Source: Clostridiales bacterium
Lineage (GTDB): Bacteria; Bacillota; Clostridia; DSM-8532
NCBI GenBank assembly: GCA_036768735.1
Contig: DAIPML010000002.1
Coordinates: 1-51,147 of the forward strand
Reading direction: 5' to 3'
DNA length: 51,147 nt
Positions 22,900 through 35,023 of the stretch are shown piece after piece. The position numbers and the translations under genes are program-made. The notes under the pieces are model-generated. The model had not been told where the DNA came from and ran no database searches. It worked only from the letters and a program-made list of their open reading frames with translations. The first letter of the stretch is position 1; every line of letters begins with the position of its first letter.

Positions 22900-24099
22900 A
22901 TGAAAATACTCGTAATAAATACAGGAAGCTCTTCATTAAAATATCAATTAATTGACACTGAAAATGTAATTGTTCTTGCTAAAGGACTTTGCGAAAGAAT
23001 TGGGCTTGGAGATTCGATTATTAAGCAGTCTGATTATTTAGGCAAGTCATTCAAAAAAGAGATTGAGCTTAATAATCATAATGACGCAATAAAAGAAGTT
23101 ATCAACGCTTTAACATGCAAGGAATATGGTGTAATTTCAAGTATGGACGAAATTTCGTCCGTTGGTCACCGAGTTGTTCATGGTGGAGAGAAATTTTATA
23201 AATCAGTCGTTATTGATGATGAAGTTCTTGAAGCAATAGAGGAATGTATTATTATGGCTCCGCTTCATAACGGACCTAACATGATTGGTATTAAAGCCTG
23301 TAAAGCAATACTGCCAAATGTTCCGATGGTTGCAGTTTTTGATACCGCTTTTCATCAGTCAATGCCAAAAGAAGCCTTTATTTTTGCTTTACCGTACAGC
23401 TTTTATGAGGATAACGGGATTCGTAGATATGGCTTCCACGGTACTTCCCATAAGTATGTTTCGGAAAGAGCAGCAGCTTTGCTGGACAAACCATATGAAT
23501 CACTAAAAATTGTTACCTGTCACTTGGGTAATGGTTCGAGTATATGCGCTGTAAAAAACGGTAAATCTATTGATACGAGCATGGGATATACGCCATTGGA
23601 TGGTCTCCCAATGGGCACAAGATGTGGTTCAATTGATCCTGCTATTGTTACAGGCTTAATTGAACACGAAAATTATGATGCGGCAATGCTTAATGATCTA
23701 TTAAATAAAAAATCCGGTGTTTTGGGCATATCCGGCGTCAGCAGTGATTTTAGAGATCTGGAGGATGCAGCTGAAAAAGGTAACGAACGTGCCAAGCTTG
23801 CTCTTGATGTTTTCGTTTACAGTGTTAAAAAGTATATAGGTGCTTATGCTGCTGCAATGGGTGGAATTGATGCACTGGTATTCACTGCTGGTATCGGAGA
23901 AAACAATGGCACTCTAAGAAAGCAAGCGGTATCAGGGTTAGAATTCTTAGGCATCGGTATAGATGATGAGAAAAACAATCAAAGAGGAAAAGAATTGGAT
24001 ATTAGTACAGCGGATGCAAAAGTAAGAACACTTGTTATTCCAACAAATGAAGAGCTTGCTATTGCTAGGGAAACTGTTAGGCTTATTGGAAAAAAATAA
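22900..24099 (+). CDS. ackA: Acetate kinase
   Basis: 399 aa with [32 protein letters not shown] and TAGIGEN. Confidence 0.95.
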
Positions 24100-24145
24100 A
24101 GAAATTCTTCATTGACAAGATATAAAACCACATGATACATTTTAG

Positions 24146-24183
24146 GGTGAAGTTAATGAATAATTATACTTCACCTTATTTAA
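24146..24183 (+). terminator. Probable terminator after ackA
   Basis: 8-bp stem GGTGAAGT/ACTTCACC with a 14-nt loop, followed by TTATTT. A TTGACA box at 24112-24117 means it could instead lie in a lysC leader. Confidence 0.45.
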
Positions 24184-24221
24184 TGCTCAAAATAACAGAA
24201 TTGCTGTGCAATTTCAACACA

Positions 24222-24305
24222 CCCCGGTTGCATGGGCGAGCAGCAAACAAAGTTTGCGACCAGCCCCGGTTGCATGGGCGAGCAGCAAACGAAGTTTGCG
24301 ACCAG
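24222..24305 (+). repeat. 42-bp direct tandem repeat x2 (family C module)
   Basis: ccccggttgcatgggcgagcagcaaacAaagtttgcgaccag occurs at 24222-24263 and again at 24264-24305 with one mismatch. It is related to 51072-51107. An inverted family A core (atacgcgaagaggtgtgg) lies at 24329-24347. Confidence 0.9.
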
Positions 24306-24479
24306 CCATTTCAACGGGGCGGGGGAAAGATACGCGAAGAGGTGTGGAATATGACATATTTTGGGCCAGTAAAGTGAAATCACATATTGAACAAGAAACT
24401 GAACATAAACATATATATATAAGTGAACTGATGCTCGATCCAATTCACGTATATATAGCGGATTTTCGGAGGGAAGTAA

Positions 24480-25841
24480 ATGAAGGTTTGTAAATTTGGA
24501 GGTACATCATTAGCTTCGGCAGATCAGATTAAAAAGGTTTGCGACATAGTTACATCTGATCCTGAACGGAGATTAGTGGTTGTTTCAGCACCGGGGAAAG
24601 AATTTGATGACGATATTAAAGTAACCGACCTTTTGATAAATTTGGCGGAAGCCTATTTAAAAACTCAAAATTGTGATAAAGAGCTTAATCAGGTCGTTTC
24701 GAGATATCAAAGAATCGCTGAAGGGCTTAATTTAGGTGATGGAATTGTCAAAGATATTGAAAACAATTTAAAGACAAGAATTTCACTGGGTTATGACCAT
24801 AAAGAAAAATTTATCGACAGAATGAAAGCTGCTGGTGAGGATAATAGTGCGCGCCTGGTAGCAAAGTATTTAAGGAGTCTGGGTTACAATGCAAAATATA
24901 TTAATCCTAAGGATGCCGGACTATATTTAAGTGATGAATATGGTAATGCTCGTATATTGCCTCAATCCTTTAAAAATCTTTCAAAACTCAGAGATATGGA
25001 TGGAATATTAATTTTCCCTGGGTTTTTTGGTTATTCATTGTCAGGCGAAGTAGTAACATTCTCAAGAGGTGGCTCTGATATTACCGGTTCCATACTTGCA
25101 GCTGCGATTGAGGCTGATATTTACGAAAACTTTACCGACGTCAACTCTGTTTATGCTGCAAATCCGAAATTAATAAAAAATCCCAAGGCTATTTCGGTTT
25201 TAACATACCGTGAAATGAGAGAGCTTGCGTATGCGGGTTTTTCTGTGCTTCATGAAGAAACCCTTGCTCCGGTTTTCAGAAAAGGGATACCTGTAAACAT
25301 CAGAAATACCAACAATCCTGAATCCAAAGGAACAATAATAGCCACAACGAGAAAAATTACCAATGGTCCAGTATCAGGCATCGCCGGTACAGGTGGCTTT
25401 TTAACAATTAATATTCATAAATATTTGATGAACAGAGAAATTGGTTTTGTTAGAAAGGTTCTTTCAATACTTGAAGAAGAATCTGTTTCGTTTGAGCATG
25501 TTCCTTCCGGTATTGATGATATCTCTATTATTCTGCGCAAAAAGCATATTGATGATGACAAGGTTTCCCGTATAATGGAACGTATTGCACATAACCTGGT
25601 TGTTGACAGTATTACAATTGGCTATGACCTTGCCCTTGTTATGGTTGTAGGTGAAGGCATGATGAACAGCATTGGAGTTGCAGGCAGAGCAACCACAGCT
25701 CTCGCAAAGGGTGGAGTAAATATAAGAATGATTAATCAGGGCTCGTCTGAAGTGAGTATAATGTTCGGAATTGATGAAAAGGATCTGGATGCTGCAATAA
25801 TTGCATTATATGATGAGTTTTTTGACGAAAACAATGAATGA
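24480..25841 (+). CDS. lysC: Aspartate kinase (monofunctional, about 450-aa class)
   Basis: N-terminus MKVCKFGGTSLASA, a kinase core and two C-terminal ACT-like regions. GGAGGG lies upstream. Confidence 0.9.
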   Translation: MKVCKFGGTSLASADQIKKVCDIVTSDPERRLVVVSAPGKEFDDDIKVTDLLINLAEAYLKTQNCDKELNQVVSRYQRIAEGLNLGDGIVKDIENNLKTRISLGYDHKEKFIDRMKAAGEDNSARLVAKYLRSLGYNAKYINPKDAGLYLSDEYGNARILPQSFKNLSKLRDMDGILIFPGFFGYSLSGEVVTFSRGGSDITGSILAAAIEADIYENFTDVNSVYAANPKLIKNPKAISVLTYREMRELAYAGFSVLHEETLAPVFRKGIPVNIRNTNNPESKGTIIATTRKITNGPVSGIAGTGGFLTINIHKYLMNREIGFVRKVLSILEEESVSFEHVPSGIDDISIILRKKHIDDDKVSRIMERIAHNLVVDSITIGYDLALVMVVGEGMMNSIGVAGRATTALAKGGVNIRMINQGSSEVSIMFGIDEKDLDAAIIALYDEFFDENNE

Positions 25842-25932: not shown

Positions 25933-26020
25933 TCAAGATGAACCTTTTGCCCGTAAAATGTTGAAATTGTGCTGCCAATACTTCCATTGTTGTAAACTCA
26001 TAAAATGCGAGGTGAAATGT

Positions 26021-26605
26021 ATGCAAAAAAATCAGCCGGCAATTGATAACTTCTGTACCACACTCCCTGCTTACATTACTGAATTGCTTCAAAACGATGT
26101 AGACAGGAAAAAAAGCACTCTTTCAGATGTGCTTCAAAATACCTTAGAAACGCATTACGGTTTAGGTGGCTGGAAAGAGAAGCTGATTCAGGACATCCAA
26201 TATAGTACAAATAGAGAAATGACACCCTATGGTAAAGATAAGTGGAATGAAGAGATTTCAGAGGATGGAAAAACTATAAAAACTTGCTTTTTAGTAGATC
26301 TTCCATTTAAATCAGACATTATTCTTGAGATCGACAGAGCTAGGTATAGCTTGCAGTTTATTGCTTATACTGCTTCAAAAAATTATAGAAAGCAATTTAG
26401 AGGTTTTTATTCTCATTCAAGAGACGGGCTGCTTAATAGAGATATGCAAATAAATGAGTTTGCACGTTTCGCAACAATTGGTTATAAGCGAAATTTCACA
26501 GCTTTAATAATACAGGATATACTTGCGGGTTCTTTCTTTGCGGAAGATCTTATAAATGATTGTATGTTTTTAATGAATATTATTAAAATGTATAAGTGGG
26601 GGTAA
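26021..26605 (+). CDS. Hypothetical protein (194 aa), no family recognised
   Basis: GAGGTG lies 6 nt upstream of ATG 26021. The N-terminal ~45 aa (TTLPAYITELLQNDVDRKKSTLSDVLQNTLETHY) could be a strand-helix-helix DNA-binding motif. The rest is unrecognised. Confidence 0.6.
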   Translation: MQKNQPAIDNFCTTLPAYITELLQNDVDRKKSTLSDVLQNTLETHYGLGGWKEKLIQDIQYSTNREMTPYGKDKWNEEISEDGKTIKTCFLVDLPFKSDIILEIDRARYSLQFIAYTASKNYRKQFRGFYSHSRDGLLNRDMQINEFARFATIGYKRNFTALIIQDILAGSFFAEDLINDCMFLMNIIKMYKWG

Positions 26606-26756
26606 TGTACTGTTCAGAATATCTATCATAGTAGCAGATGGTTATGAAGTTTAAAGCTCTTGCAGGTTTTACAGTATACTTTGAACGGTACTGTTCAAAC
26701 CTTCTATAATTCCTCGTTACTTAAAAGGTATTAACTTTCCGGGTAGTTTATTCTGG

Positions 26757-26848
26757 TTCACTCCCTCTATATTTCCACAGCTGCCTTTGAACGTTATTAT
26801 TCACACCCTCATATTTCCACAGTTACCTTTGAACAGTTACCTTTAAAT
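26757..26848 (+). repeat. Family E repeat, two tandem 43-nt units plus a partial third
   Basis: ttcacTccctctatatttccacagCTGcctttgaac occupies 26757-26793, and ttcacAccctcatatttccacagTTAcctttgaac occupies 26800-26835. Related modules lie at 37114-37130 and 48923-48955. Confidence 0.85.
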
Positions 26849-26875
26849 AATTTGTTAAATAGTAAGAAAAATTTG

Positions 26876-26905
26876 TTGACAGATTTAACTGTATAAGCAT
26901 ATAAT
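26876..26905 (+). promoter_or_regulatory. Candidate sigmaA promoter (TTGACA-18-TATAAT) upstream of the aromatic leader
   Basis: TTGACA at 26876-26881 and TATAAT at 26900-26905. Confidence 0.55.
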
Positions 26906-27094
26906 ATGTTCTAACACTTACAGAATGAAGTTGAACCGGTTGGAATAAAAAACCATCGATGAAAACAAAAAACAGGTTTTTGACATCAAGTTATACCTTT
27001 ACCGGTATCAGCAAAGCTTCAAACTCGATAGTGTAAAGTAACTTATGAAAACGCAACTAAGACTTATGTTTAAAACTCATTGGAGGATACGAAA

Positions 27095-27202
27095 ATGAAT
27101 ATCCTTAACTTAAACAGCAGTTTTGTATTTTTTTACTTTTTTAGCTTTGCTTTTTACTTTACGTATTTTAGCACAGCCAATTTAATATGTAAAAAAGTAT
27201 AA
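27095..27202 (+). CDS. 35-codon Phe/Tyr-rich ORF: candidate leader peptide of the aro operon (alternatively a small hydrophobic protein)
   Basis: GGAGGA (27082-27087) lies 7 nt upstream of the ATG. The peptide is MNILNLNSSFVFFYFFSFAFYFTYFSTANLICKKV, with 9 Phe and 3 Tyr between residues 10 and 25. It ends 44 nt before a terminator and 163 nt before aroF. Confidence 0.45.
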   Translation: MNILNLNSSFVFFYFFSFAFYFTYFSTANLICKKV

Positions 27203-27245
27203 ATACAATCAATGGGTTATAACATAAAGATATAAGAATTTTAAC

Positions 27246-27277
27246 AGAGACTCGATTGTGGGTCTCTTATTTTTTTA
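27246..27277 (+). terminator. Intrinsic terminator between the leader ORF and aroF
   Basis: Stem AGAGACUC/GGGUCUCU (8 bp including one G-U pair), loop GATTGT, followed by TATTTTTTTATT. Confidence 0.7.
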
Positions 27278-27305
27278 TTAAAGCATATTTTATGTTTTAT
27301 GAGAA

Positions 27306-27333
27306 TTGAACAGAAAGCATACCTTTTTATACT
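27306..27333 (+). promoter_or_regulatory. Possible second promoter (TTGAAC-16-TATACT) downstream of the terminator
   Basis: TTGAAC at 27306-27311 and TATACT at 27328-27333. If active, it would drive aroF independently of the leader. Confidence 0.3.
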
Positions 27334-27364
27334 TTTAATTAATGTTGAGGGAGGATGAAAACAT

Positions 27365-28384
27365 ATGGTAGTTGTTTTAAAACCTAATGTGCCGGTAGAA
27401 AAAAGAAATGAGCTAATAAGAGAAATTGAATCCATGGGAGTTCGGGTTCAAGTCACAGAAGGTGTTGATGTATCAATTCTTGGACTTGTGGGTGATACCA
27501 CTAACCTGAATAAATACAGAATAGCGTCCAATGAAATTGTCGCTAATATACTTAGAGTTCAAGAGCCCTTTAAAAAGGCAAACAAAATGTTTAAACCTGA
27601 TAATACAATTATAGAAGTGTCGGGAAGAAAAATTGGCGAAGGTTATTTTACAGTAATCACAGGACCGTGCTCAGTAGAAAGTGAGGATCAGATTGAGGGA
27701 ATAGCAAAGGTTGTTAAGGAAAACAAGGCAGCTTTTCTCCGCGGCGGAGCCTATAAACCGAGAACATCTCCTTATGCCTTTCAGGGATTGGGTCTTGAAG
27801 GCCTTGAATATTTAAAACATGCCAAGACACATACGGGATTACCAATTGTTTCTGAGATCATGTCGGTTGATATGGTGCAGCGCTTTGTTGACGATGTGGA
27901 TATTATTCAGATTGGTGCGAGAAATATGCAAAATTTTGTTCTGCTAAAGGAATTAGGGAAAACAAACAAGCCAATTCTTTTAAAGCGTGGATTAGCCGCA
28001 ACAATCGAAGAGTGGCTTATGTCAGCTGAATACATTATGAGTGAAGGTAATGATCAGGTTATTCTTTGCGAAAGAGGTATCAGGACATTTGAGACATACA
28101 CAAGGAACACACTTGATTTAAGCTCCATCCCCGCTATAAAAAAGCTCAGCCATTTACCGGTTATTGTTGACCCAAGCCATGCTACAGGGAAAGCCTGGAT
28201 GGTTGAAAGTATGTCAAAGGCTGCTGTCGTTGCGGGAGGTGACGGCCTCATAATTGAAGTTCACAATAATCCTGCTTGCGCACTGTGTGACGGACAGCAA
28301 TCCATTACACCCGATGAGTATTCTGTGTTGATGAAAAAAATCGAAAAACTGGTTGAGTTTGAAGGTAAAACACTGGTATGCTGA
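27365..28384 (+). CDS. aroF: 3-deoxy-7-phosphoheptulonate (DAHP) synthase, type I-beta with an N-terminal ferredoxin-like regulatory domain
   Basis: 339 aa. The N-terminal ~65-aa domain (MVVVLKPNVPVEKRNELIREIESMG) precedes a KDO8PS-like core (GPCSVES, LRGGAYKPRTSPY, DPSH). Confidence 0.9.
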   Translation: MVVVLKPNVPVEKRNELIREIESMGVRVQVTEGVDVSILGLVGDTTNLNKYRIASNEIVANILRVQEPFKKANKMFKPDNTIIEVSGRKIGEGYFTVITGPCSVESEDQIEGIAKVVKENKAAFLRGGAYKPRTSPYAFQGLGLEGLEYLKHAKTHTGLPIVSEIMSVDMVQRFVDDVDIIQIGARNMQNFVLLKELGKTNKPILLKRGLAATIEEWLMSAEYIMSEGNDQVILCERGIRTFETYTRNTLDLSSIPAIKKLSHLPVIVDPSHATGKAWMVESMSKAAVVAGGDGLIIEVHNNPACALCDGQQSITPDEYSVLMKKIEKLVEFEGKTLVC

Positions 28385-28398
28385 TAATATGATTGTTT

Positions 28399-28568
28399 AC
28401 CGGAAAGTCAAGAATTAATTTTTTCCATAAATTTGCTTGCAGTAAGTTACAGCCTACTGCAACCTGTTGAATTACAATATGGTTATCCGGTCTACTTTTG
28501 AGGTTGATGAATTTATGATATCTTTATTTCACCAGAATAAGCGAAGTGGCTTTCCGGGTAAAACCATA
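28399..28568 (-). repeat. Family B composite repeat (reverse orientation) in the aroF-aroB spacer
   Basis: Its reverse complement aligns over about 170 nt with 46995-47185 (e.g. cggataaccatattgtaattcaacaggttgcagtaggctgtaacttactgc versus ggataaccataatgtgattgcactaggttgcaacaagctgcaacttcctgc). The ends ccggaaagtca / gtggctttccgg form an inverted repeat. Confidence 0.8.
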
Positions 28569-28589
28569 AAATAATATAGGAGGCTAAAA

Positions 28590-29669
28590 ATGCAAAAAAT
28601 AGATGTAAAACTTACTCACAAAAATTATCCGATTTATATTGAAAACGGACTATTTAAAAAAGCAGGTTCCATACTTTCAGAGTTTCTTGCTGAAAAAAAA
28701 GTAATTATAGTCACAGACAGTAATTTATCGTCCTCCTATGGCAATGAGCTCTTACAAAGCTTAAGGGCTGATAAGATTGAATCAGAAATATGCATTATTC
28801 CCGCCGGAGAAAAAAGTAAAAGCATAGATGTGCTTACAAAGCTTTATAATTCATTTGCTGGTTTTGGTATAACAAGGAATGATTTTGTGATTGCTCTGGG
28901 TGGGGGTGTTACAGGTGATTTAACAGGATTCGCAGCATCCACCTGGCTTCGGGGCACAGGATTTATTCAAATACCCACGTCACTTCTTTCAATGGTTGAT
29001 TCCAGTATTGGAGGAAAAGTTGCTATAAACCTGCAAATCGGAAAAAATTTGGTCGGTAGCTTTTATCATCCTGAAGTTGTACTTATTGATCCCGTACTGC
29101 TTGAAACAATACCAAACAGATATTTTGCAGATGGAATGGCTGAGGTTATAAAATATGGTTGTATTGATGGAACAGAGCTTTTTGACAGTTTAAAAAATCT
29201 AAAGAACCGCCAAAGTACAATGAAAATCATCGATAGCATCATATTCCGATGTTGTGATATAAAGCGCAGGATAGTTGAGTTGGACGAACGAGAAAGTAAT
29301 ATTAGAATGGTGCTGAATTTTGGGCACACAATTGGACATGCAATAGAAAAGTATTTTGATTATAAAAAATATACTCATGGTGAGGCAGTTTCACTGGGTA
29401 TGGTATTTATAGCCGAATTATCCCATAAGCTTGGATATTGCAACAAAGATATTCCCGACAGGATTACGATTCTTCTTAAGCAGTCAGGTCTCCCGGTTGT
29501 TATTCCGGAAATGGAGCCGAAAGCTGTTATTGATACGGTTTTTGTTGATAAAAAAGCAAGAACAAATGATATAAATCTGATACTTATAAAGGATATTGGA
29601 AATGTAATAATTGAAAAATTCCCAAAGGATAAAATCGGAGGTCATATCTATGAAATGCTTAACAATTAA
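28590..29669 (+). CDS. aroB: 3-dehydroquinate synthase
   Basis: 359 aa with GGGVTGDLTGFAA, SMVDSSIGGKVAIN and NFGHTIGHAIE. Confidence 0.93.
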   Translation: MQKIDVKLTHKNYPIYIENGLFKKAGSILSEFLAEKKVIIVTDSNLSSSYGNELLQSLRADKIESEICIIPAGEKSKSIDVLTKLYNSFAGFGITRNDFVIALGGGVTGDLTGFAASTWLRGTGFIQIPTSLLSMVDSSIGGKVAINLQIGKNLVGSFYHPEVVLIDPVLLETIPNRYFADGMAEVIKYGCIDGTELFDSLKNLKNRQSTMKIIDSIIFRCCDIKRRIVELDERESNIRMVLNFGHTIGHAIEKYFDYKKYTHGEAVSLGMVFIAELSHKLGYCNKDIPDRITILLKQSGLPVVIPEMEPKAVIDTVFVDKKARTNDINLILIKDIGNVIIEKFPKDKIGGHIYEMLNN

Positions 29670-30933
29670 GCCGTCAAAGCTAACCGGCAGGGTATTAGTG
29701 CCACCATCTAAAAGCATGGTACACCGTGCTGTTATCTGTGCTTTTCTTTCCGAGGGTACAAGTGAGATTAGTAATGTGGAGCTGTCAAATGATATAATTG
29801 CAACCTGTAGCGCTGTGGAAGCTCTCGGGGCAGAAATAGACATTCTGGATAATGGGATACCCGGCCGCAAAAAACTTATTATCACCGGAAATGGCATGGT
29901 TAAAGTTAAAAAGAGCAGAATTAATTGCAAAGAATCCGGTACAACAGCGCGCTTTATCATGCCCATAAGCAGGCTTTCTTCGGAGCAAATAATAATTGAT
30001 GGAGAAAATAAGCTTGTTGAACGTCCATTCGATGTGTTTTTTGATATCTTTCAAAACCATGGCATCAGCTTTGAAGCCAATAACAACAAGTTACCAATAA
30101 CTCTAAAAGGGAAGCTGAACCCCGGTACTTTTGAAATAAGGGGTGATGTCAGCTCACAGTTTATATCCGGTCTTTTACTTGCATTGCCGCTCCTGCCGGG
30201 TGATTCTGAAATAAAAATAACCACATCTTTAGAGTCTGCAGGATATATAGATATGACTCTTCAAATGCAGAAGCTGTTTGGCATAAACATTCAATTTAAC
30301 CGCGAAGAAAACAAGCTGTTTATCCCAGGGTGGCAGAAATATACACCATGTAGATACGAAGCAGAAGGGGACTGGTCTCAAGCAGCTTTTTGGCTGGCTG
30401 CCGGAGCATTGACGGGTCCGGTGGAGATACTAGGATTAAACCCGGAATCAATTCAAGGCGATAGAGTCATTGAAAGCATTATGCAAAGGATGGGTATTAA
30501 TTTAATTTGGAAAGACGGCGTTGTTACAGCGGAAAGAAAAAAGCTTAAAAGCATTGATATCGATGTCTCGCAGTGCCCGGATCTTGTTCCAATACTTGCT
30601 GTTTTGTTCTCTGTTGGGGAAGGTAAGGCGAAAATATTTAATGCAGCGAGGCTTCGTTTAAAGGAATGTGATAGGCTAAATGCTGTTACTGTTGAATTAA
30701 AAGCACTTGGTGCGGATATTAGTGAGGGTGACGACTTTCTTAATATTAATGGAGTTAATAAGCTTAAGGGCGGAAGAGTTTACGACTGGAATGATCATAG
30801 GATTGTTATGGCTGCTGCTGTTGCTGCTTCAGTCTGTGAGAAAAATGTTATAATCGAAGGGTATGAAGCGGTAAATAAATCATATCCAACTTTCTGGGAT
30901 CACTATAAAGACCTTGGGGGTGAAGTGTTTTGA
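29650..30933 (+). CDS. aroA: 3-phosphoshikimate 1-carboxyvinyltransferase (EPSP synthase)
   Basis: Start at ATG 29650 (GGAGG 8 nt upstream), overlapping the aroB end. Motifs PPSKSMVHRA, KESGTTARF and RLKECDR. Confidence 0.92.
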   Translation: MKCLTIKPSKLTGRVLVPPSKSMVHRAVICAFLSEGTSEISNVELSNDIIATCSAVEALGAEIDILDNGIPGRKKLIITGNGMVKVKKSRINCKESGTTARFIMPISRLSSEQIIIDGENKLVERPFDVFFDIFQNHGISFEANNNKLPITLKGKLNPGTFEIRGDVSSQFISGLLLALPLLPGDSEIKITTSLESAGYIDMTLQMQKLFGINIQFNREENKLFIPGWQKYTPCRYEAEGDWSQAAFWLAAGALTGPVEILGLNPESIQGDRVIESIMQRMGINLIWKDGVVTAERKKLKSIDIDVSQCPDLVPILAVLFSVGEGKAKIFNAARLRLKECDRLNAVTVELKALGADISEGDDFLNINGVNKLKGGRVYDWNDHRIVMAAAVAASVCEKNVIIEGYEAVNKSYPTFWDHYKDLGGEVF

Positions 30934-32015
30934 GTAGTATTTGGGGTGAGAACATTAAGATTTCAGTATTCGGTGAGTCCCATGGGGAAGCCATCGGTGT
31001 TGTTGTTGACGGATTACCTCCGGGGATAAAGCTTGATATTGACAAGATTAATCTTGAAATGGATAGAAGAAAACCGGGGCAGAATGCATACACGACACAG
31101 AGAAAAGAAGCCGACCGGGTTGAAATTGTCAGCGGCTTTTTTAACGGTTTCACGACCGGTACTCCTTTATGTGGAATCATCCGCAACACTGATAAAAGAT
31201 CGGTGGACTATGACAAAATCAAAAGCATTATGCGCCCAAGCCATGCGGATTATACCGGTAGAATATTATATAAAGGGTTTGGGGATTATCGCGGTGGCGG
31301 GCATTTCTCCGGTAGACTCACAGCGCCTGTAGTTTTTGCCGGGGCAATAGCATATCAATATCTTGAGCAAGCTGGAATAACCATTGGTACGCATTTATTA
31401 AAAATAGGAGAAATCGAAGACATACGGATTGATCCGGTTAACATTAGTGCAAAAGAACTTATAAGCCTTAGACATATGCATTTCCCGGTTATTAATAAAG
31501 ATGTCGGTGAAAATATGAAAAAAGTAATAAGCGACGCTAAAACAAGCGGTGATTCCGTAGGCGGTGTCTTGGAGACATCTATTATAAACTTACCGGAAGG
31601 TCTTGGTTCTCCAATGTTTCAATCGGTAGAGAGCAGGTTATCGTCTTTTATATTTTCAATACCGGCTGTAAAAGGTATTGAGTTTGGAGCCGGGTTTGGT
31701 TTTACTGATATGAGTGGTTTTGAAGCGAATGATTCATTTTATATTGAAGGCGATAAGGTGAAAACAAAAACAAACCACTCCGGCGGAATTAATGGCGGAA
31801 TTACAAACGGCATGCCTGTTATATTCAGAACAGCAATGCGTCCAACACCGTCCATTGCTAAGATGCAGCAAACAATAGATGCAGACACTATGACGGAAAC
31901 AGAATTTAGTGTTCATGGCAGGCATGATCCTTGTATAGCTTTGCGAGCAGTCCCTGTGTTGGATGCAGCTGCAGCGATAGTTATATTGGATTTATGCATG
32001 AAGAAAGAAGGGTAA
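30930..32015 (+). CDS. aroC: Chorismate synthase
   Basis: The TTG start overlaps the aroA stop. Motifs FGESHG, RPSHADYT and GGISNG-like GGINGGITNG. Confidence 0.92.
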   Translation: MSSIWGENIKISVFGESHGEAIGVVVDGLPPGIKLDIDKINLEMDRRKPGQNAYTTQRKEADRVEIVSGFFNGFTTGTPLCGIIRNTDKRSVDYDKIKSIMRPSHADYTGRILYKGFGDYRGGGHFSGRLTAPVVFAGAIAYQYLEQAGITIGTHLLKIGEIEDIRIDPVNISAKELISLRHMHFPVINKDVGENMKKVISDAKTSGDSVGGVLETSIINLPEGLGSPMFQSVESRLSSFIFSIPAVKGIEFGAGFGFTDMSGFEANDSFYIEGDKVKTKTNHSGGINGGITNGMPVIFRTAMRPTPSIAKMQQTIDADTMTETEFSVHGRHDPCIALRAVPVLDAAAAIVILDLCMKKEG

Positions 32016-32018
32016 CCG

Positions 32019-33170
32019 ATGGGGCATGAGCTTAATGATATAAGAATAAAAATAAATGATATTGATAAAAAAATGGTAGAGCTTTTTGAAGAGCGTCTTA
32101 CTATAGTGTCAGAAGTTGCGGCTTATAAAAAACAAAATAATCTAAAGATATTTGATAAAGAACGTGAAAAAGAGGTTATAAAAAGAGCTTCTTCCTATTT
32201 AAAAAACAATGAACATGAAAAGTATTTAAATGTCTTTATGGATGAGCTGATGACTCTTTGCAGACAATATCAGATTGACATAATCAAAGATTATGGAACT
32301 GTGCAAGATGAAAAAGAGACATTCCCAGAGGGTTATTCCGTTATTGGTTATTTAGGTGTGACAGGTTCATACAGCGAAGAAGCAGCCAGCATGTATTTTG
32401 GAGAAAGCTTTACAAAAAGAGCTTTTGGACATTTTGATGAAATAGTAAATGCTCTGTTAAAATGCGAAATTGATGTTGCAGTATTACCGGTTGAGAATTC
32501 TTCAACAGGCACGATCAGTAGGGTTATAGATCTTATAAGCAGTAATAATGTTTACATAACGGGAGAGCATATATCACCAATATGCCACAATTTGCTGACT
32601 TTGCCCGGTACGAAGCTTACTGACATAAAAAAAGTCTATTCACATCACCAGGGTTTGGAGCAGAGCAGAAATTTCTTAAAGCAATATCCTTGGGAGCTGA
32701 TTGAATATAAAAGCACCGCCGACAGTGCAAAGCTCGTTCATGATTTGCAGGATAAATCAATAGCTGCTGTTGCATCACACCACTGCGCTGAAATTTACGG
32801 GCTTGAAATTGTTGTACCGAATATAAACTATGAAAATAATTATACCCGTTTTATTATGGTTGGCAGAGAGCTTACAATTAATAAAAGCTGTAATAAGATC
32901 AGTGTGGCAATGGATATCGCTCATAAGCCAGGTGCCCTGTTTAAGATTTTAAGGCTTTTTAAGGATAGAAACATAAATTTATTAAAGATCGAATCCAGAC
33001 CTATTCTCGGAAAACCTTGGGAGTACTTATTTTTCTTTGATTTTGAAGGTAACCTTTTAGATGACAGGATTAAGGATTTGATTGAATGCTTAAAGGATGC
33101 GGTAAACGACTTTCGCATATTGGGAAACTACCGTGCGTATGAGAAGAATATTAAAAATAATGGGATATAG
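32019..33170 (+). CDS. pheA: Bifunctional chorismate mutase / prephenate dehydratase (P-protein) with a C-terminal ACT domain
   Basis: An N-terminal AroQ-type chorismate mutase helix (LNDIRIKINDIDKKMVELFEERL) is followed by a prephenate dehydratase core (LPVENSSTGTI, TRFIMVG) and an ACT domain (PGALFKILRLF ... ESRP). Confidence 0.88.
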   Translation: MGHELNDIRIKINDIDKKMVELFEERLTIVSEVAAYKKQNNLKIFDKEREKEVIKRASSYLKNNEHEKYLNVFMDELMTLCRQYQIDIIKDYGTVQDEKETFPEGYSVIGYLGVTGSYSEEAASMYFGESFTKRAFGHFDEIVNALLKCEIDVAVLPVENSSTGTISRVIDLISSNNVYITGEHISPICHNLLTLPGTKLTDIKKVYSHHQGLEQSRNFLKQYPWELIEYKSTADSAKLVHDLQDKSIAAVASHHCAEIYGLEIVVPNINYENNYTRFIMVGRELTINKSCNKISVAMDIAHKPGALFKILRLFKDRNINLLKIESRPILGKPWEYLFFFDFEGNLLDDRIKDLIECLKDAVNDFRILGNYRAYEKNIKNNGI

Positions 33171-33191
33171 TGTCCATTAAGAAGTAAGTCT

Positions 33192-33278
33192 GTGGCTTGC
33201 GATGCTGGACATATCAGAACAAAAACAACCATTGAAGCAGTGATATGTCCACCTAAGTTATGTCCACCTAAGTTATGT
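33192..33278 (+). repeat. Family D-like fragment plus a 15-nt tandem repeat in the pheA-aroE spacer
   Basis: gtggcttgcgatgctggacatatca...cattgaagcagtgatatgtccacc parallels D3 (ggcttgcgagtgatat...cattcagaggtgtgatatcacgcc). A 10-bp inverted repeat ggacatatca/tgatatgtcc lies at 33207-33216 and 33241-33250. atgtccacctaagtt occurs twice at 33245-33274. Confidence 0.7.
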
Positions 33279-33404
33279 ACTACTAGTTTAGTTTCCAAAG
33301 CCGCTTAATCTCACAATTTTATTTAATCGACCACAGAATAACCACTGTATTTTACCAATCAATGAAGTTGTTTATTGAATTTTGACTTACGAAAGGAGTC
33401 TCGT

Positions 33405-34397
33405 ATGAAGTATGGTTTAATAGGTGAAAAGCTCAGTCATAGTCTATCTCCTGACATTCATAGGATTTTCTTCGAACTGACAGGAAAAAAAGGTGATTAC
33501 GGGCTTTTTGAGCTTTCAATAGAGGAACTTCAGCCTTTTCTTTTGAATGCTTCTGATAAAGGCTTTAAAGGCTTGAATGTGACGATTCCATATAAAAAAA
33601 AGGTTATTTCGTATATCAATGAATTATCCAAAGAAGCAATGAAAATTGGTGCGGTGAATACAATTGTGCCTGGGAACATGTTGAAAGGCTATAATACCGA
33701 TTATTATGGAATAGATTATACTCTAAGAAAATATCATGAAAGCTTTTATTGGGACAGAGCTCTTGTATTGGGTAGTGGCGGGGCAGCAAATGCAGTTATC
33801 ACTTATCTTGAAGACAATAAAGACAATGAATTCAATGAAGAAGGTATAGACAATGCAGACAAAAAAGACAACATAGATTATAAAAAAAATAAAGACAATA
33901 AAGAAAATAAAGACAATGCAAACAAAAATGAAGACTATGAAAGAAATGAAAGCAACAAATACAATGAAACCAATGGAATCAATGAAATTAATAAAAGAAG
34001 CAGTGTTGTAAGCAAAATCTATCTGGCAAGCAGAGATAAAATAGCTGCAAAAAATAAATTTCCACATGCTAATACGGTTTCATATGATGAAATAGCTGAT
34101 TATTCACCATTTGACATAATAGTAAACACTACACCGGTGGGAATGTTTCCATCGGTAGGAGCTTCTCCATTAACAAAAGAGCAAATTAATGGCTCCGGCT
34201 TTTTGTTTGACTTAATTTATAACCCTGCTAAAACAAGGCTGATGGAGCTTTCAGATGAATTAGGCATACCTAATGTAAATGGGCTGTATATGCTGGTAGC
34301 CCAAGCTGTAAAAGCACAGGAAATATGGAATGGAGAAGAGTATGGGCAGGATTTGGTAGATGCTGTATACTTGAGGTTCTTGGGGGAACGAGCTTAA
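33405..34397 (+). CDS. aroE: Shikimate dehydrogenase (canonical catalytic motifs) carrying a ~65-aa low-complexity insertion
   Basis: SHSLSP, NVTIPYKK, GYNTDYYG, GSGGAANA and NTTPVGM are present. AAAGGAG lies upstream of ATG 33405. An N/K/D/E-rich insert is encoded at about 33811-34005. Confidence 0.9.
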   Translation: MKYGLIGEKLSHSLSPDIHRIFFELTGKKGDYGLFELSIEELQPFLLNASDKGFKGLNVTIPYKKKVISYINELSKEAMKIGAVNTIVPGNMLKGYNTDYYGIDYTLRKYHESFYWDRALVLGSGGAANAVITYLEDNKDNEFNEEGIDNADKKDNIDYKKNKDNKENKDNANKNEDYERNESNKYNETNGINEINKRSSVVSKIYLASRDKIAAKNKFPHANTVSYDEIADYSPFDIIVNTTPVGMFPSVGASPLTKEQINGSGFLFDLIYNPAKTRLMELSDELGIPNVNGLYMLVAQAVKAQEIWNGEEYGQDLVDAVYLRFLGERA

Positions 34398-34522
34398 GAA
34401 AGGAATATAAAAAGTTAATTGCCAGTCATTTCAAGTGTAAACGTTGATTTATCATGAGGTTTGTAACTATAAATATGTTAACTTAAACTTCATAAATAAT
34501 ATTTTAAAAGGAATGAAGTAAA

Positions 34523-35023
34523 ATGATAAAAAATATTGTGTTAACAGGAATTATGGGCTGCGGCAAAACAACAATTGGTAAAAAAATTGCTGCCAAGTTA
34601 AGCATGGAATTTCTGGATTTGGATCATTATATTGAAGAAAAATGGGGCAGGATTCCTGAGCTTTTTTTACATGGTGAAGAGCATTTCAGGAATATTGAAA
34701 GTATTGCGGTATCGGAAGCCGGGAACAAAGAACACACGGTTATCGCAACCGGTGGTGGAATAATAAAACGAGACAAAAACATCTTTAGCCTGAAAAGAAA
34801 CGGTATAATTTTTTTCATTGATCGTCCTATAGAAGATATTATGAAAGACATCGAAATCTCAGAAAGACCTCTTTTGTTAGATGGTAAGGAAAAGCTTTTA
34901 AATATCTATAAGGATAGGTACCAAAAATACATAGAAACCTGTGATTTCCACATAAAAAATGCAAGCAGCATCGATAATGTGTTAGACGAGATTATCCGTA
35001 TTTGGGAGTTGAAAAACAATTAA
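34523..35023 (+). CDS. aroK: Shikimate kinase
   Basis: 166 aa with P-loop GIMGCGKTTIGK, plus FRNIES and GGGII. Confidence 0.9.
   Translation: MIKNIVLTGIMGCGKTTIGKKIAAKLSMEFLDLDHYIEEKWGRIPELFLHGEEHFRNIESIAVSEAGNKEHTVIATGGGIIKRDKNIFSLKRNGIIFFIDRPIEDIMKDIEISERPLLLDGKEKLLNIYKDRYQKYIETCDFHIKNASSIDNVLDEIIRIWELKNN

Follow-up and report, generated by a model that had tools for sequence, protein, structure and literature searches.

Upstream of the aroF-aroB-aroA-aroC-pheA-aroE-aroK operon of a Clostridiales bacterium, we identified a leader region that we interpret, with a probability of roughly 80%, as a ribosome-mediated (leader-peptide) transcription attenuator of the operon. The region lies in a 51,147-nucleotide stretch of DNA (contig DAIPML010000002.1, positions 1 to 51,147, forward strand), referred to here as the window. 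An initial annotation had proposed a Phe/Tyr-sensing leader-peptide attenuator at this site, and comparison with related loci now strengthens that proposal: the arrangement recurs in a family of aroF leaders, the terminator stem covaries, and the RNA around the leader stop codon appears to co-evolve with the terminator 5′ arm. The window contains a short open reading frame (ORF) led by a Shine-Dalgarno (SD) sequence, a cluster of codons for products of the pathway, a terminator before the first gene and, near the leader stop, a mutually exclusive antiterminator that is weak in the window itself. The promoter, SD, 35-codon ORF, terminator and operon were all recovered where the initial annotation had placed them, and the parts are as follows.

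26876 to 26905, forward strand: sigma-A-type promoter of the leader-aro transcript, TTGACA-18-TATAAT, matching the consensus at 12/12 positions.
26906 to 27081, forward strand: long 5′ untranslated region (UTR) between promoter and leader SD, a lineage-specific insertion.
27082 to 27087, forward strand: leader SD, GGAGGA, read from the sequence, 7 nt before ATG 27095.
27095 to 27202, forward strand: leader peptide ORF of 35 codons plus TAA (stop 27200-27202), translated as MNILNLNSSFVFFYFFSFAFYFTYFSTANLICKKV.
27122 to 27169, forward strand: putative regulatory codon run, F10 to F25, with 9 TTT (Phe), 2 TAC and 1 TAT (Tyr).
27122 to 27203, forward strand: predicted hairpin P1 around the regulatory codons, inferred from minimum free energy (MFE) folds.
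27205 to 27218, forward strand: putative antiterminator 5′ strand, ACAATC AAT GGGTT, beginning 3 nt past the leader stop, from RNAduplex and nascent-RNA MFE.
27249 to 27259, forward strand: putative antiterminator 3′ strand, running from the inner terminator 5′ arm through the loop to the first 3′-arm base.
27246 to 27277, forward strand: intrinsic terminator, a hairpin at 27246-27267 followed by TATTTTTTTA.
27349 to 27355, forward strand: aroF SD, GGGAGGA, read from the sequence.
27365 to 28384, forward strand: aroF, 3-deoxy-D-arabino-heptulosonate 7-phosphate (DAHP) synthase with an N-terminal ferredoxin-like regulatory domain (Pfam PF00793, PF18152), the presumed first regulated gene.
28590 to 35023, forward strand: the remainder of the presumed regulated operon, aroB, aroA, aroC, pheA, aroE and aroK, from Pfam.

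In the mechanism that we propose, transcription would begin at the 26876-26905 promoter, and a ribosome would load at the SD at 27082-27087 and translate the 35-codon leader. A shortage of charged tRNA-Phe or tRNA-Tyr would make the ribosome stall within codons 10-25 (27122-27169), leaving 27205-27218 free to pair with 27249-27259 as the latter emerges from RNA polymerase. This pairing would tie up the loop together with the inner half of the 5′ arm of the terminator, allowing read-through into aroF. When Phe and Tyr are plentiful, the ribosome would instead reach the TAA at 27200-27202 and cover or unwind the antiterminator 5′ strand; with the antiterminator blocked, the 27246-27267 hairpin and U-tract would form and transcription would stop before aroF. 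The parts, their conservation, the terminator covariation and the antiterminator co-evolution come directly from the sequences; how the system responds to tRNA charging, how ribosome and polymerase are timed against each other, and whether P1 plays any part are inferences.

The leader ORF stands out sharply within the window. Its residues 10-25 comprise nine Phe, every one encoded by TTT, and three Tyr, in agreement with the initial annotation; these 12 aromatics in a 16-residue stretch compare with 8 in the runner-up among 871 six-frame ORFs of the window. We compared the locus with 80 loci encoding AroF relatives, drawn from a one-genome-per-species collection, the upstream counts being given for 79 loci; handles such as L001 denote individual loci. 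The nearest AroF relatives come from two Clostridiaceae metagenome-assembled genomes at 91% and 84% identity, all others being at 65% or below. A short ORF with at least 7 Phe, Tyr or Trp per 12 residues occurred within 400 nt upstream of aroF at 32/79 loci. The same criterion was satisfied by 6/790 dinucleotide shuffles, 3/79 reverse complements and 0/73 control regions, the last taken 900-1300 nt upstream. At a threshold of 6 in 12, 44/79 loci qualified; 38 of these 44 carried an SD-like motif, and 43 a hairpin with a T-run between leader and aroF (42 by the hairpin finder and L005 after a renewed search, with L016 unconfirmed).

The qualifying loci are taxonomically broad, including Clostridium butyricum, C. 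chromiireducens, C. nigeriense, Clostridioides difficile, Alkalibacter, Monoglobus, Ruminococcus, Roseburia faecis and Christensenellales, as well as the Negativicutes Pelosinus, Megasphaera, Phascolarctobacterium and Acidaminococcus. The leader is always directly upstream of aroF and co-oriented with it, in many families. A typical family peptide reads MKKDNNITVMQKLYSFFYFMNWGFYFSAGYFFCKKLNKTFLMSA; lengths range from 16 to 56 residues, and aromatic density reaches 11 of 12 residues in relatives. By MAFFT, the window leader is homologous at the nucleotide level to the leaders at 18 other aligned loci, with TTTAGCACAGCCAATTTAATATGTAAAAAAGTAT of the window aligning with TTTAGCGCTGGCTATTTCTTTTGCAAAAAACTGAAT of the family. 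Indels among C. butyricum-type leaders are multiples of 3 nt, preserving the frame. Very divergent members, for example MKSNIYYVFAFYFYGGYVR and MKNMIISRISNAYYYYYGYLR, share only aromatic composition, SD and start codon, and terminator. The recurrence of an aromatic short ORF and terminator, with compensatory changes, bears out the check by alignment of aroF upstream regions that the initial annotation had suggested. A low-complexity metagenome search with the pattern TATTTTTTTRCTTTTTTAGC gave 119 matches, just three of which are true relatives (L099, L154 and L182); L099 and L154 are near-identical, and L182 resembles L002.

Across 42 leaders, Phe and Tyr make up 16% and 11% of residues, compared with 2.7% and 1.6% in AroF. 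Tyr is present in 42/42 leaders, Phe in 41/42 and Trp in 22/42, and the best explanation for the leaders of relatives is that they sense Trp as well. Codon choice in the leaders is also skewed: Phe is encoded by TTT in 83% of cases in the 42 leaders and in 53% in the adjacent aroF, the window leader using TTT in 9/9. This bias might reflect selection for the slower, wobble-decoded codon, or U-richness for pairing with an A-rich segment.

The second element, the intrinsic terminator, consists of 8 Watson-Crick/GU pairs plus a terminal G.U (-10.4 kcal/mol), and its hairpin at 27246-27267 was the only terminator-like site in the 2 kb scanned. RNAalifold recovered the terminator from a 19-sequence alignment (A2), and pair counting on the same alignment found changes on both sides in 7 of 10 pairs, with 90.5% of cells paired. 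Among near relatives, AGAGAC/GTCTCT becomes AGAGGC/GCCTCT in L002 and L154, and GGGAGAC/GTCTCCC in L001. Leader, antiterminator strand and terminator are all kept in four diverged relatives, with compensatory changes.

Comparative pairing also supports the conclusion that RNA around the leader stop acts as an antiterminator, co-evolving with the terminator 5′ arm. In the window, C27206-C27210 would pair with G27254-G27258 and G27214-T27218 with G27249-C27253, with an AAU bulge between the two helices. A27205:T27259 adds one pair, which shows an A:T to G:C double change in L001. The duplex scores -8.7 kcal/mol by RNAduplex against the terminator 5′ arm and loop, and it forms in the nascent-RNA MFE structure. 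Its strand is kept in L001, L002 and L154, and the pairing is the homologue of AATGAGT/ACTCATT in relatives. The initial annotation had noted the pairing of 27205-27210 with 27254-27259 and dismissed it as weak; the pairing exists as reported, but the dismissal does not hold, for it extends through 27214-27218/27249-27253 into the antiterminator and belongs to a family-wide pattern of co-evolution.

That pattern takes different sequence forms. In the C. butyricum type, the complement of the last leader codons (..LMSV and stop, TTAATGAGTG) is found in ACTCATTAA, the 5′ arm and loop of the terminator. Loci of the C. nigeriense type have both sides altered together (AAGTGAGTT with AACTCCTT), and other lineages carry unrelated yet complementary strands, for example CGTTTGGTGTGCG with CGACACCAAAC. 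Against mononucleotide shuffles, 16/43 loci had an antiterminator at p ≤ 0.05. When the stop zone (-48 to +20) of each locus was paired with cognate and non-cognate terminators, its own 5′ arm with loop came out best, at a median rank of 4 of 43 (Wilcoxon p = 3.6e-8); the test is conservative because relatives share sequence. In the alignment, the antiterminator helix is 79% paired, versus 27-49% when the partner is slid by 1-3 columns.

Equilibrium folding under ribosome occupancy did not discriminate between ribosome positions, as expected of a kinetic switch, and we therefore folded nascent RNA, extending up to the terminator loop with the 3′ arm not yet made, for 38 family members. The median probability that the terminator 5′ arm is sequestered was 0.75 for a ribosome halted on the final aromatic codon and fell, once the ribosome was placed on the stop codon, to 0.41 for a +13 footprint and 0.35 for +16. 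The stalled value exceeded the stop value in 35/37 loci (+13) and 33/35 loci (+16). For the window, sequestration was 0.59 on ribosome-free RNA and 0.64 in the stalled state, compared with 0.61 at stop+13 and 0.25 at stop+16, so that the switch predicted by these folds is modest and footprint-dependent at this locus. Ribosome-constrained folding, a check that the initial annotation had also suggested, did return exclusive structures with a difference between stalled and stop states; its equilibrium form was uninformative and the effect in the window modest.

The regulatory codons themselves may be structured. In the window, the U-rich Phe codons (from 27122) are predicted to pair with the A-rich TGTAAAAAAGTATAAA (to 27203), with an inner stem AGCTTTGCT/AGCACAGC; L001 and L154 keep the nucleotides of this A-rich segment even though they do not translate it. 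In MFE folds of relatives, the aromatic codons lie in a tiered hairpin of AUGCAAAA/UUUUGCA, UAUAGC/GCUAUA and GGGCU/AGCGCU. P1 covaries only modestly: 58-83% of cells are paired, and double changes are few. The hairpin is plausible but not established; it may serve in pausing or synchronisation, or as a partial 1:2 structure. For roughly a third of relatives, the terminator arm is sequestered less in untranslated RNA than in the stalled state, a pattern that follows the three-state logic of classical attenuators. A 1:2 anti-antiterminator AGCGCU:AGUGCU, picked out by eye, was rejected as not general across relatives. A small hairpin, UAGC-GCUG-GCUA, found in relatives by RNAalifold, is broken in the window by TAGCACAGCCAA and so falls outside the window mechanism.

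Relatives also share a conserved core, TTTAGCGCTGGCTATTT-N4-TGCAAAAAA, which is conserved down to its synonymous positions (AGC for Ser, GCT for Ala, GGC for Gly). The core was seen in L003-L019, L040, L043 and L065 (alignment A2, columns 104-138), and in MFE folds it forms the 3′ half of the tiered hairpin around the aromatic codons. Ser is encoded by AGC at 49% of leader codons versus 25% in aroF, and Gly by GGC at 55% versus 37%.

Several results weigh against attenuation at the window locus. The window antiterminator comprises 10-11 bp with a 3-nt bulge and an internal loop of about 30 nt; its nascent MFE is -4.4 kcal/mol compared with -10.4 for the terminator, and taken alone it scores z = -1.3 (p = 0.12), its significance coming from the family only. 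At equilibrium, the terminator stem has a probability of about 0.8 at every ribosome position. With a +13 footprint, sequestration in the window hardly changes between the stalled and stop states (0.64 and 0.61), the switch being seen with +16 only. The occupancy comparison is itself partly biased, because masking more RNA always removes pairing partners. No clear 1:2 anti-antiterminator was found, and P1 excludes the antiterminator strand. Lastly, the leaders of L001 and L154 end 20-22 nt earlier, through a 1-nt deletion in a T-run (L001, at about 2880-2900) and a TTA-to-TAA change (L154, reverse strand, at about 2030-2060), which would leave the antiterminator strand exposed when a ribosome sits at the stop; direct masking from the stop codon then fails in both loci, and no occupancy effect was seen in L001. 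The nucleotides past the early stop (TGTAAAAAAATAT...CAATCAATGGG) are still conserved in both loci, and either the A-rich segment has a role at the RNA level or L001 contains an assembly error.

These weaknesses leave some room for a constitutive, leaky or relic terminator, with aroF transcribed mainly from a promoter at 27306-27333 and the leader translated but without a regulatory role here. The 97-nt spacer between terminator and aroF does hold TTGAAC-16-TATACT, which the initial annotation had put forward as a plausible second promoter, and this explanation would accommodate the weak window antiterminator, the terminator favoured at equilibrium at all ribosome positions and the stop codons of L001 and L154, which are not adjacent to the antiterminator strand. 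The proposed promoter, however, matches at only 9/12 positions in a region where 9 promoter-like sites were found and 7.1 are expected in shuffles, a chance-level result. Nor is it conserved: it is impossible in L001 and L154, because aroF begins 21 nt and about 40 nt, respectively, past the terminator, and most loci have 25-60 nt. We rejected this second promoter on both grounds. Retention of leader, antiterminator strand and terminator with compensatory changes in the four diverged relatives, and the family-wide antiterminator signal, argue for function, and we regard a relic or non-regulatory terminator as unlikely.

A second explanation makes the leader RNA itself the sensor, of a protein, a tRNA or a small molecule, with the ORF secondary; P1, the core UUUAGCGCUGGCUAU and repeats of UAG resembling those bound by the trp RNA-binding attenuation protein (TRAP) are the candidate elements. 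The nearly fixed synonymous positions of the core Ser-Ala-Gly codons in relatives, the tiered hairpins around the aromatic codons and the UUUAGC repeats in some leaders, such as that of L033, would all fit such a sensor. It is disfavoured because the window has lost the conserved core and kept the aromatic ORF. Distant members such as those noted above share just composition and architecture, and no relevant Rfam match was obtained even at E ≤ 10. A TRAP site has 9-11 UAG triplets, and the window has two only. An RNA-level sensor therefore seems to us still less probable than a relic terminator, and ribosome-mediated attenuation remains the preferred reading.

The initial annotation had also raised the possibility that the ORF is an independent gene encoding a small hydrophobic, type-I-toxin-like peptide; in the form considered here it could also be a membrane peptide, with its own terminator and no link to aro regulation. 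In favour of this, the peptide is hydrophobic, ends in the basic stretch CKKV, and comes with a promoter, SD and terminator of its own. What is conserved across the family is composition and RNA pairing rather than peptide sequence or length (16-56 residues), and the strict synteny and co-orientation with aroF in many families contradict a toxin-like gene. The C-terminal LICKKV is untranslated in L001 and L154 though its nucleotides are conserved. Scans of six leader peptides against Pfam and NCBIfam gave no family match. Neither a convincing antisense promoter nor an antisense RNA was evident, the one 10/12 minus-strand match within the ORF (27193-27165) falling among counts at chance level, and we consider this alternative very improbable. 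As for a chance ORF in T-rich intergenic DNA, which the initial annotation had likewise entertained and which a GC content of 30% in the intergenic region would favour, the probability is negligible given 12/16 aromatics against a maximum of 8 in the 870 other window ORFs, shuffles that almost never match the observed values, and synteny and composition conserved in at least 44 loci.

Upstream of the leader, the promoter is the only perfect match in 26000-28000 by promoter scan, and its homologue is kept in L001, L002 and L154, as is the leader SD element TTGGAGGA. Between the -10 box and the SD, the window carries an insert of about 175 nt, present in a shorter form in L001 and absent from L002 and L154, whose homologous promoters sit right next to the leader SD. 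The insert (26912-27094) folds no better than shuffles (z = -0.5) and has no Rfam match, and for these reasons we assign it no role. Downstream, Pfam places 3-dehydroquinate (DHQ) synthase, 5-enolpyruvylshikimate-3-phosphate (EPSP) synthase, chorismate synthase, a chorismate mutase-prephenate dehydratase-ACT protein (CM-PDT-ACT, pheA), shikimate dehydrogenase and shikimate kinase after aroF, in that order. Two gaps within the operon, aroF-aroB (28385-28589) and pheA-aroE (33171-33374), are unusually long at 205 nt each; in neither did we find any terminator-like site or convincing promoter.

A repeat cluster (26607-26848) immediately precedes the leader promoter. It contains a 24-nt direct repeat, ATATTTCCACAG(C/T)T(G/A)CCTTTGAAC, in two copies and a third degenerate one, a palindrome with perfect arms, TTTGAACGGT/ACTGTTCAAA, at 26680-26699, and several TTTGAAC/GTTCAAA-like half-sites. 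These repeats could be transcription-factor operators, forming a second layer of control, or remnants of repeat elements. A 215-residue ORF directly upstream of the leader region (25958-26605, forward strand) has no Pfam or NCBIfam match. Further upstream are acetate kinase and aspartokinase-like (AA_kinase plus ACT) genes (22900-25841), and a tRNA-Gln (CTG) lies at 468-541 on the forward strand.

Other aroF loci in the comparison set are organised differently. Those of the Ruminococcus type (L044, L046, L048, L049, L052, L058, L061 and L068) have no leader ORF. They share a conserved promoter region, TTGA(C/T)T...CGCTTTAAAGTG(A/G)TAAAAT, about 60-30 nt upstream of aroF, and within it lies a palindrome, CTTTAAAG. 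The palindrome may be a repressor operator, a different regulatory solution for aroF. At six Clostridium loci (L028, L029, L035, L045, L056 and L060), aroF directly follows a same-strand ORF, with TAGTA(C/T)(A/G)GGAGG before the start codon and neither leader nor terminator; there aroF seems to be internal to a longer operon.

We compared the leader with known regulatory RNAs and leader-peptide systems. At the gathering threshold, Rfam gave nothing relevant in the whole window, and cmscan of 26550-27450 at E ≤ 10 gave four matches at chance level, none of which belonged to a leader family. In the 40 related loci that were scanned, no gathering-score match lay upstream of aroF. The T-box model RF00230 matched neither the window nor the aroF upstream regions of related loci, in line with the initial annotation, which had seen no T-box core; the same model does find a T-box elsewhere in L006. 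On these scans we rejected both a T-box and the known Rfam leaders (Phe_, Trp_, His_, Leu_ and Thr_leader, and the leu/phe leader). The family is widespread but has no Rfam, Pfam or NCBIfam entry, and the mechanism class itself is textbook and not new.

Leader-peptide attenuation is also established within the phylum. His leader peptides are known in the Bacillus cereus group and C. difficile (PMC2965389; PMC4833913), and a Leu-rich attenuator peptide precedes S. aureus ilv-leu (PMC5794164), so T-boxes are not the sole amino-acid sensors of Firmicutes. These leaders share mechanism class and phylum with the one proposed here and serve other amino acids and operons, none of them aromatic. Since they and aroF leader peptides, in C. 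glutamicum and as an Acholeplasma upstream-ORF candidate, were already known, the initial annotation overstated how unusual a Firmicutes attenuator of this kind would be. In the literature searched, we found no aromatic aroF leader peptide in Clostridia or Negativicutes, although the cross-phylum survey of Lopatovskaya et al. 2010 might list such.

C. difficile provides a link to published transcript data. The 5′ UTR of aroF in strain 630 shows premature termination and no similarity to known riboregulators, and a leader peptide goes unmentioned (Fuchs et al. 2021, PMC8237595). At the orthologous loci L015 and L024, we found a homologous leader, MKGILKELTAKLYSFYYFMFWGFYFSAGYFFYKN..., and a terminator; in C. 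difficile, the predicted leader promoter is TTGACA-N17-TGCTATAAT, the T-run lies about 36-44 nt upstream of the aroF ATG, and the leader peptide is labelled only ‘hypothetical protein’ in NCBI. The published data speak experimentally for terminator function in vivo at this orthologue and lend indirect support to the attenuation reading. We lean, somewhat cautiously, towards a broader interpretation in which Clostridia and Negativicutes would hold a large, unrecognised family of tri-aromatic (Phe/Tyr/Trp) attenuators at the entry to the shikimate pathway, with a core UUUAGCGCUGGCUAU...UGCAAAAAA folding the regulatory codons into a tiered hairpin, and in which this family would explain the orphan termination of C. 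difficile. If this holds, the tiered hairpin would be an extra layer undescribed for classical attenuators, acting in pausing, synchronisation or slowing of the ribosome, and leader peptides rather than T-boxes would be the commonest aro-operon sensor of these classes within our sample.

Were the proposed attenuation confirmed, many Clostridia and Negativicutes, including C. difficile and abundant gut anaerobes, would be seen to gate the committed step of aromatic amino acid synthesis by a ribosome-sensing leader that reads Phe, Tyr and often Trp supply in one peptide. The common picture of T-boxes, TRAP or repressors as the controls of this pathway in Firmicutes would need correcting, and the published premature termination at C. 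difficile aroF, to which no mechanism was assigned, would be explained. Confirmation would also supply an annotation rule for short ORFs that are now missed or named ‘hypothetical protein’, and make deletion of the leader or terminator a target for shikimate de-repression in clostridial metabolic engineering.

The closest published counterparts also control aroF. In C. glutamicum, aroR (Phe-Tyr-Phe) lies upstream of aroF, and Phe limitation raises read-through (Mentz et al. 2013, PMC4046766; Neshat et al. 2014, as reported in PMC11802643). The two systems are alike in their Phe/Tyr leader codons, in the DAHP synthase gene aroF and in the stalling logic; by description, on which this comparison is based, they differ in that aroR is actinobacterial and has a Phe-Tyr-Phe motif only, compared with 12/16 aromatics here, and the window operon comprises the whole common pathway and pheA. 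The uORFC-13-1 motif, with 24 representatives in Acholeplasma and environmental sequences, occurs exclusively before aroF, codes for ‘at least one’ Phe and was proposed to sense the speed of Phe incorporation (Brewer et al. 2021, PMC8632094). It resembles the window family, as far as its text description goes, in its promoter, ribosome-binding site, Phe-coding U-run and ensuing intrinsic terminator, and it belongs to the broader Bacillota/Mycoplasmatota neighbourhood; the Anaeroplasmataceae loci in our set (L070 and L074) lack a Clostridium-type leader.

Compared with the classical pheL-pheA and trpL attenuators of E. coli, the window leader precedes the common shikimate pathway and pheA rather than pheA alone, and its codons are mixed Phe/Tyr, with Trp added in relatives. 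Its codons are predicted to lie inside P1, and it has neither a clear 1:2 pairing nor an Rfam leader match. What it shares with the E. coli systems is the short ORF with its regulatory codon run, the terminator and a putative antiterminator whose formation would depend on the position of the ribosome.

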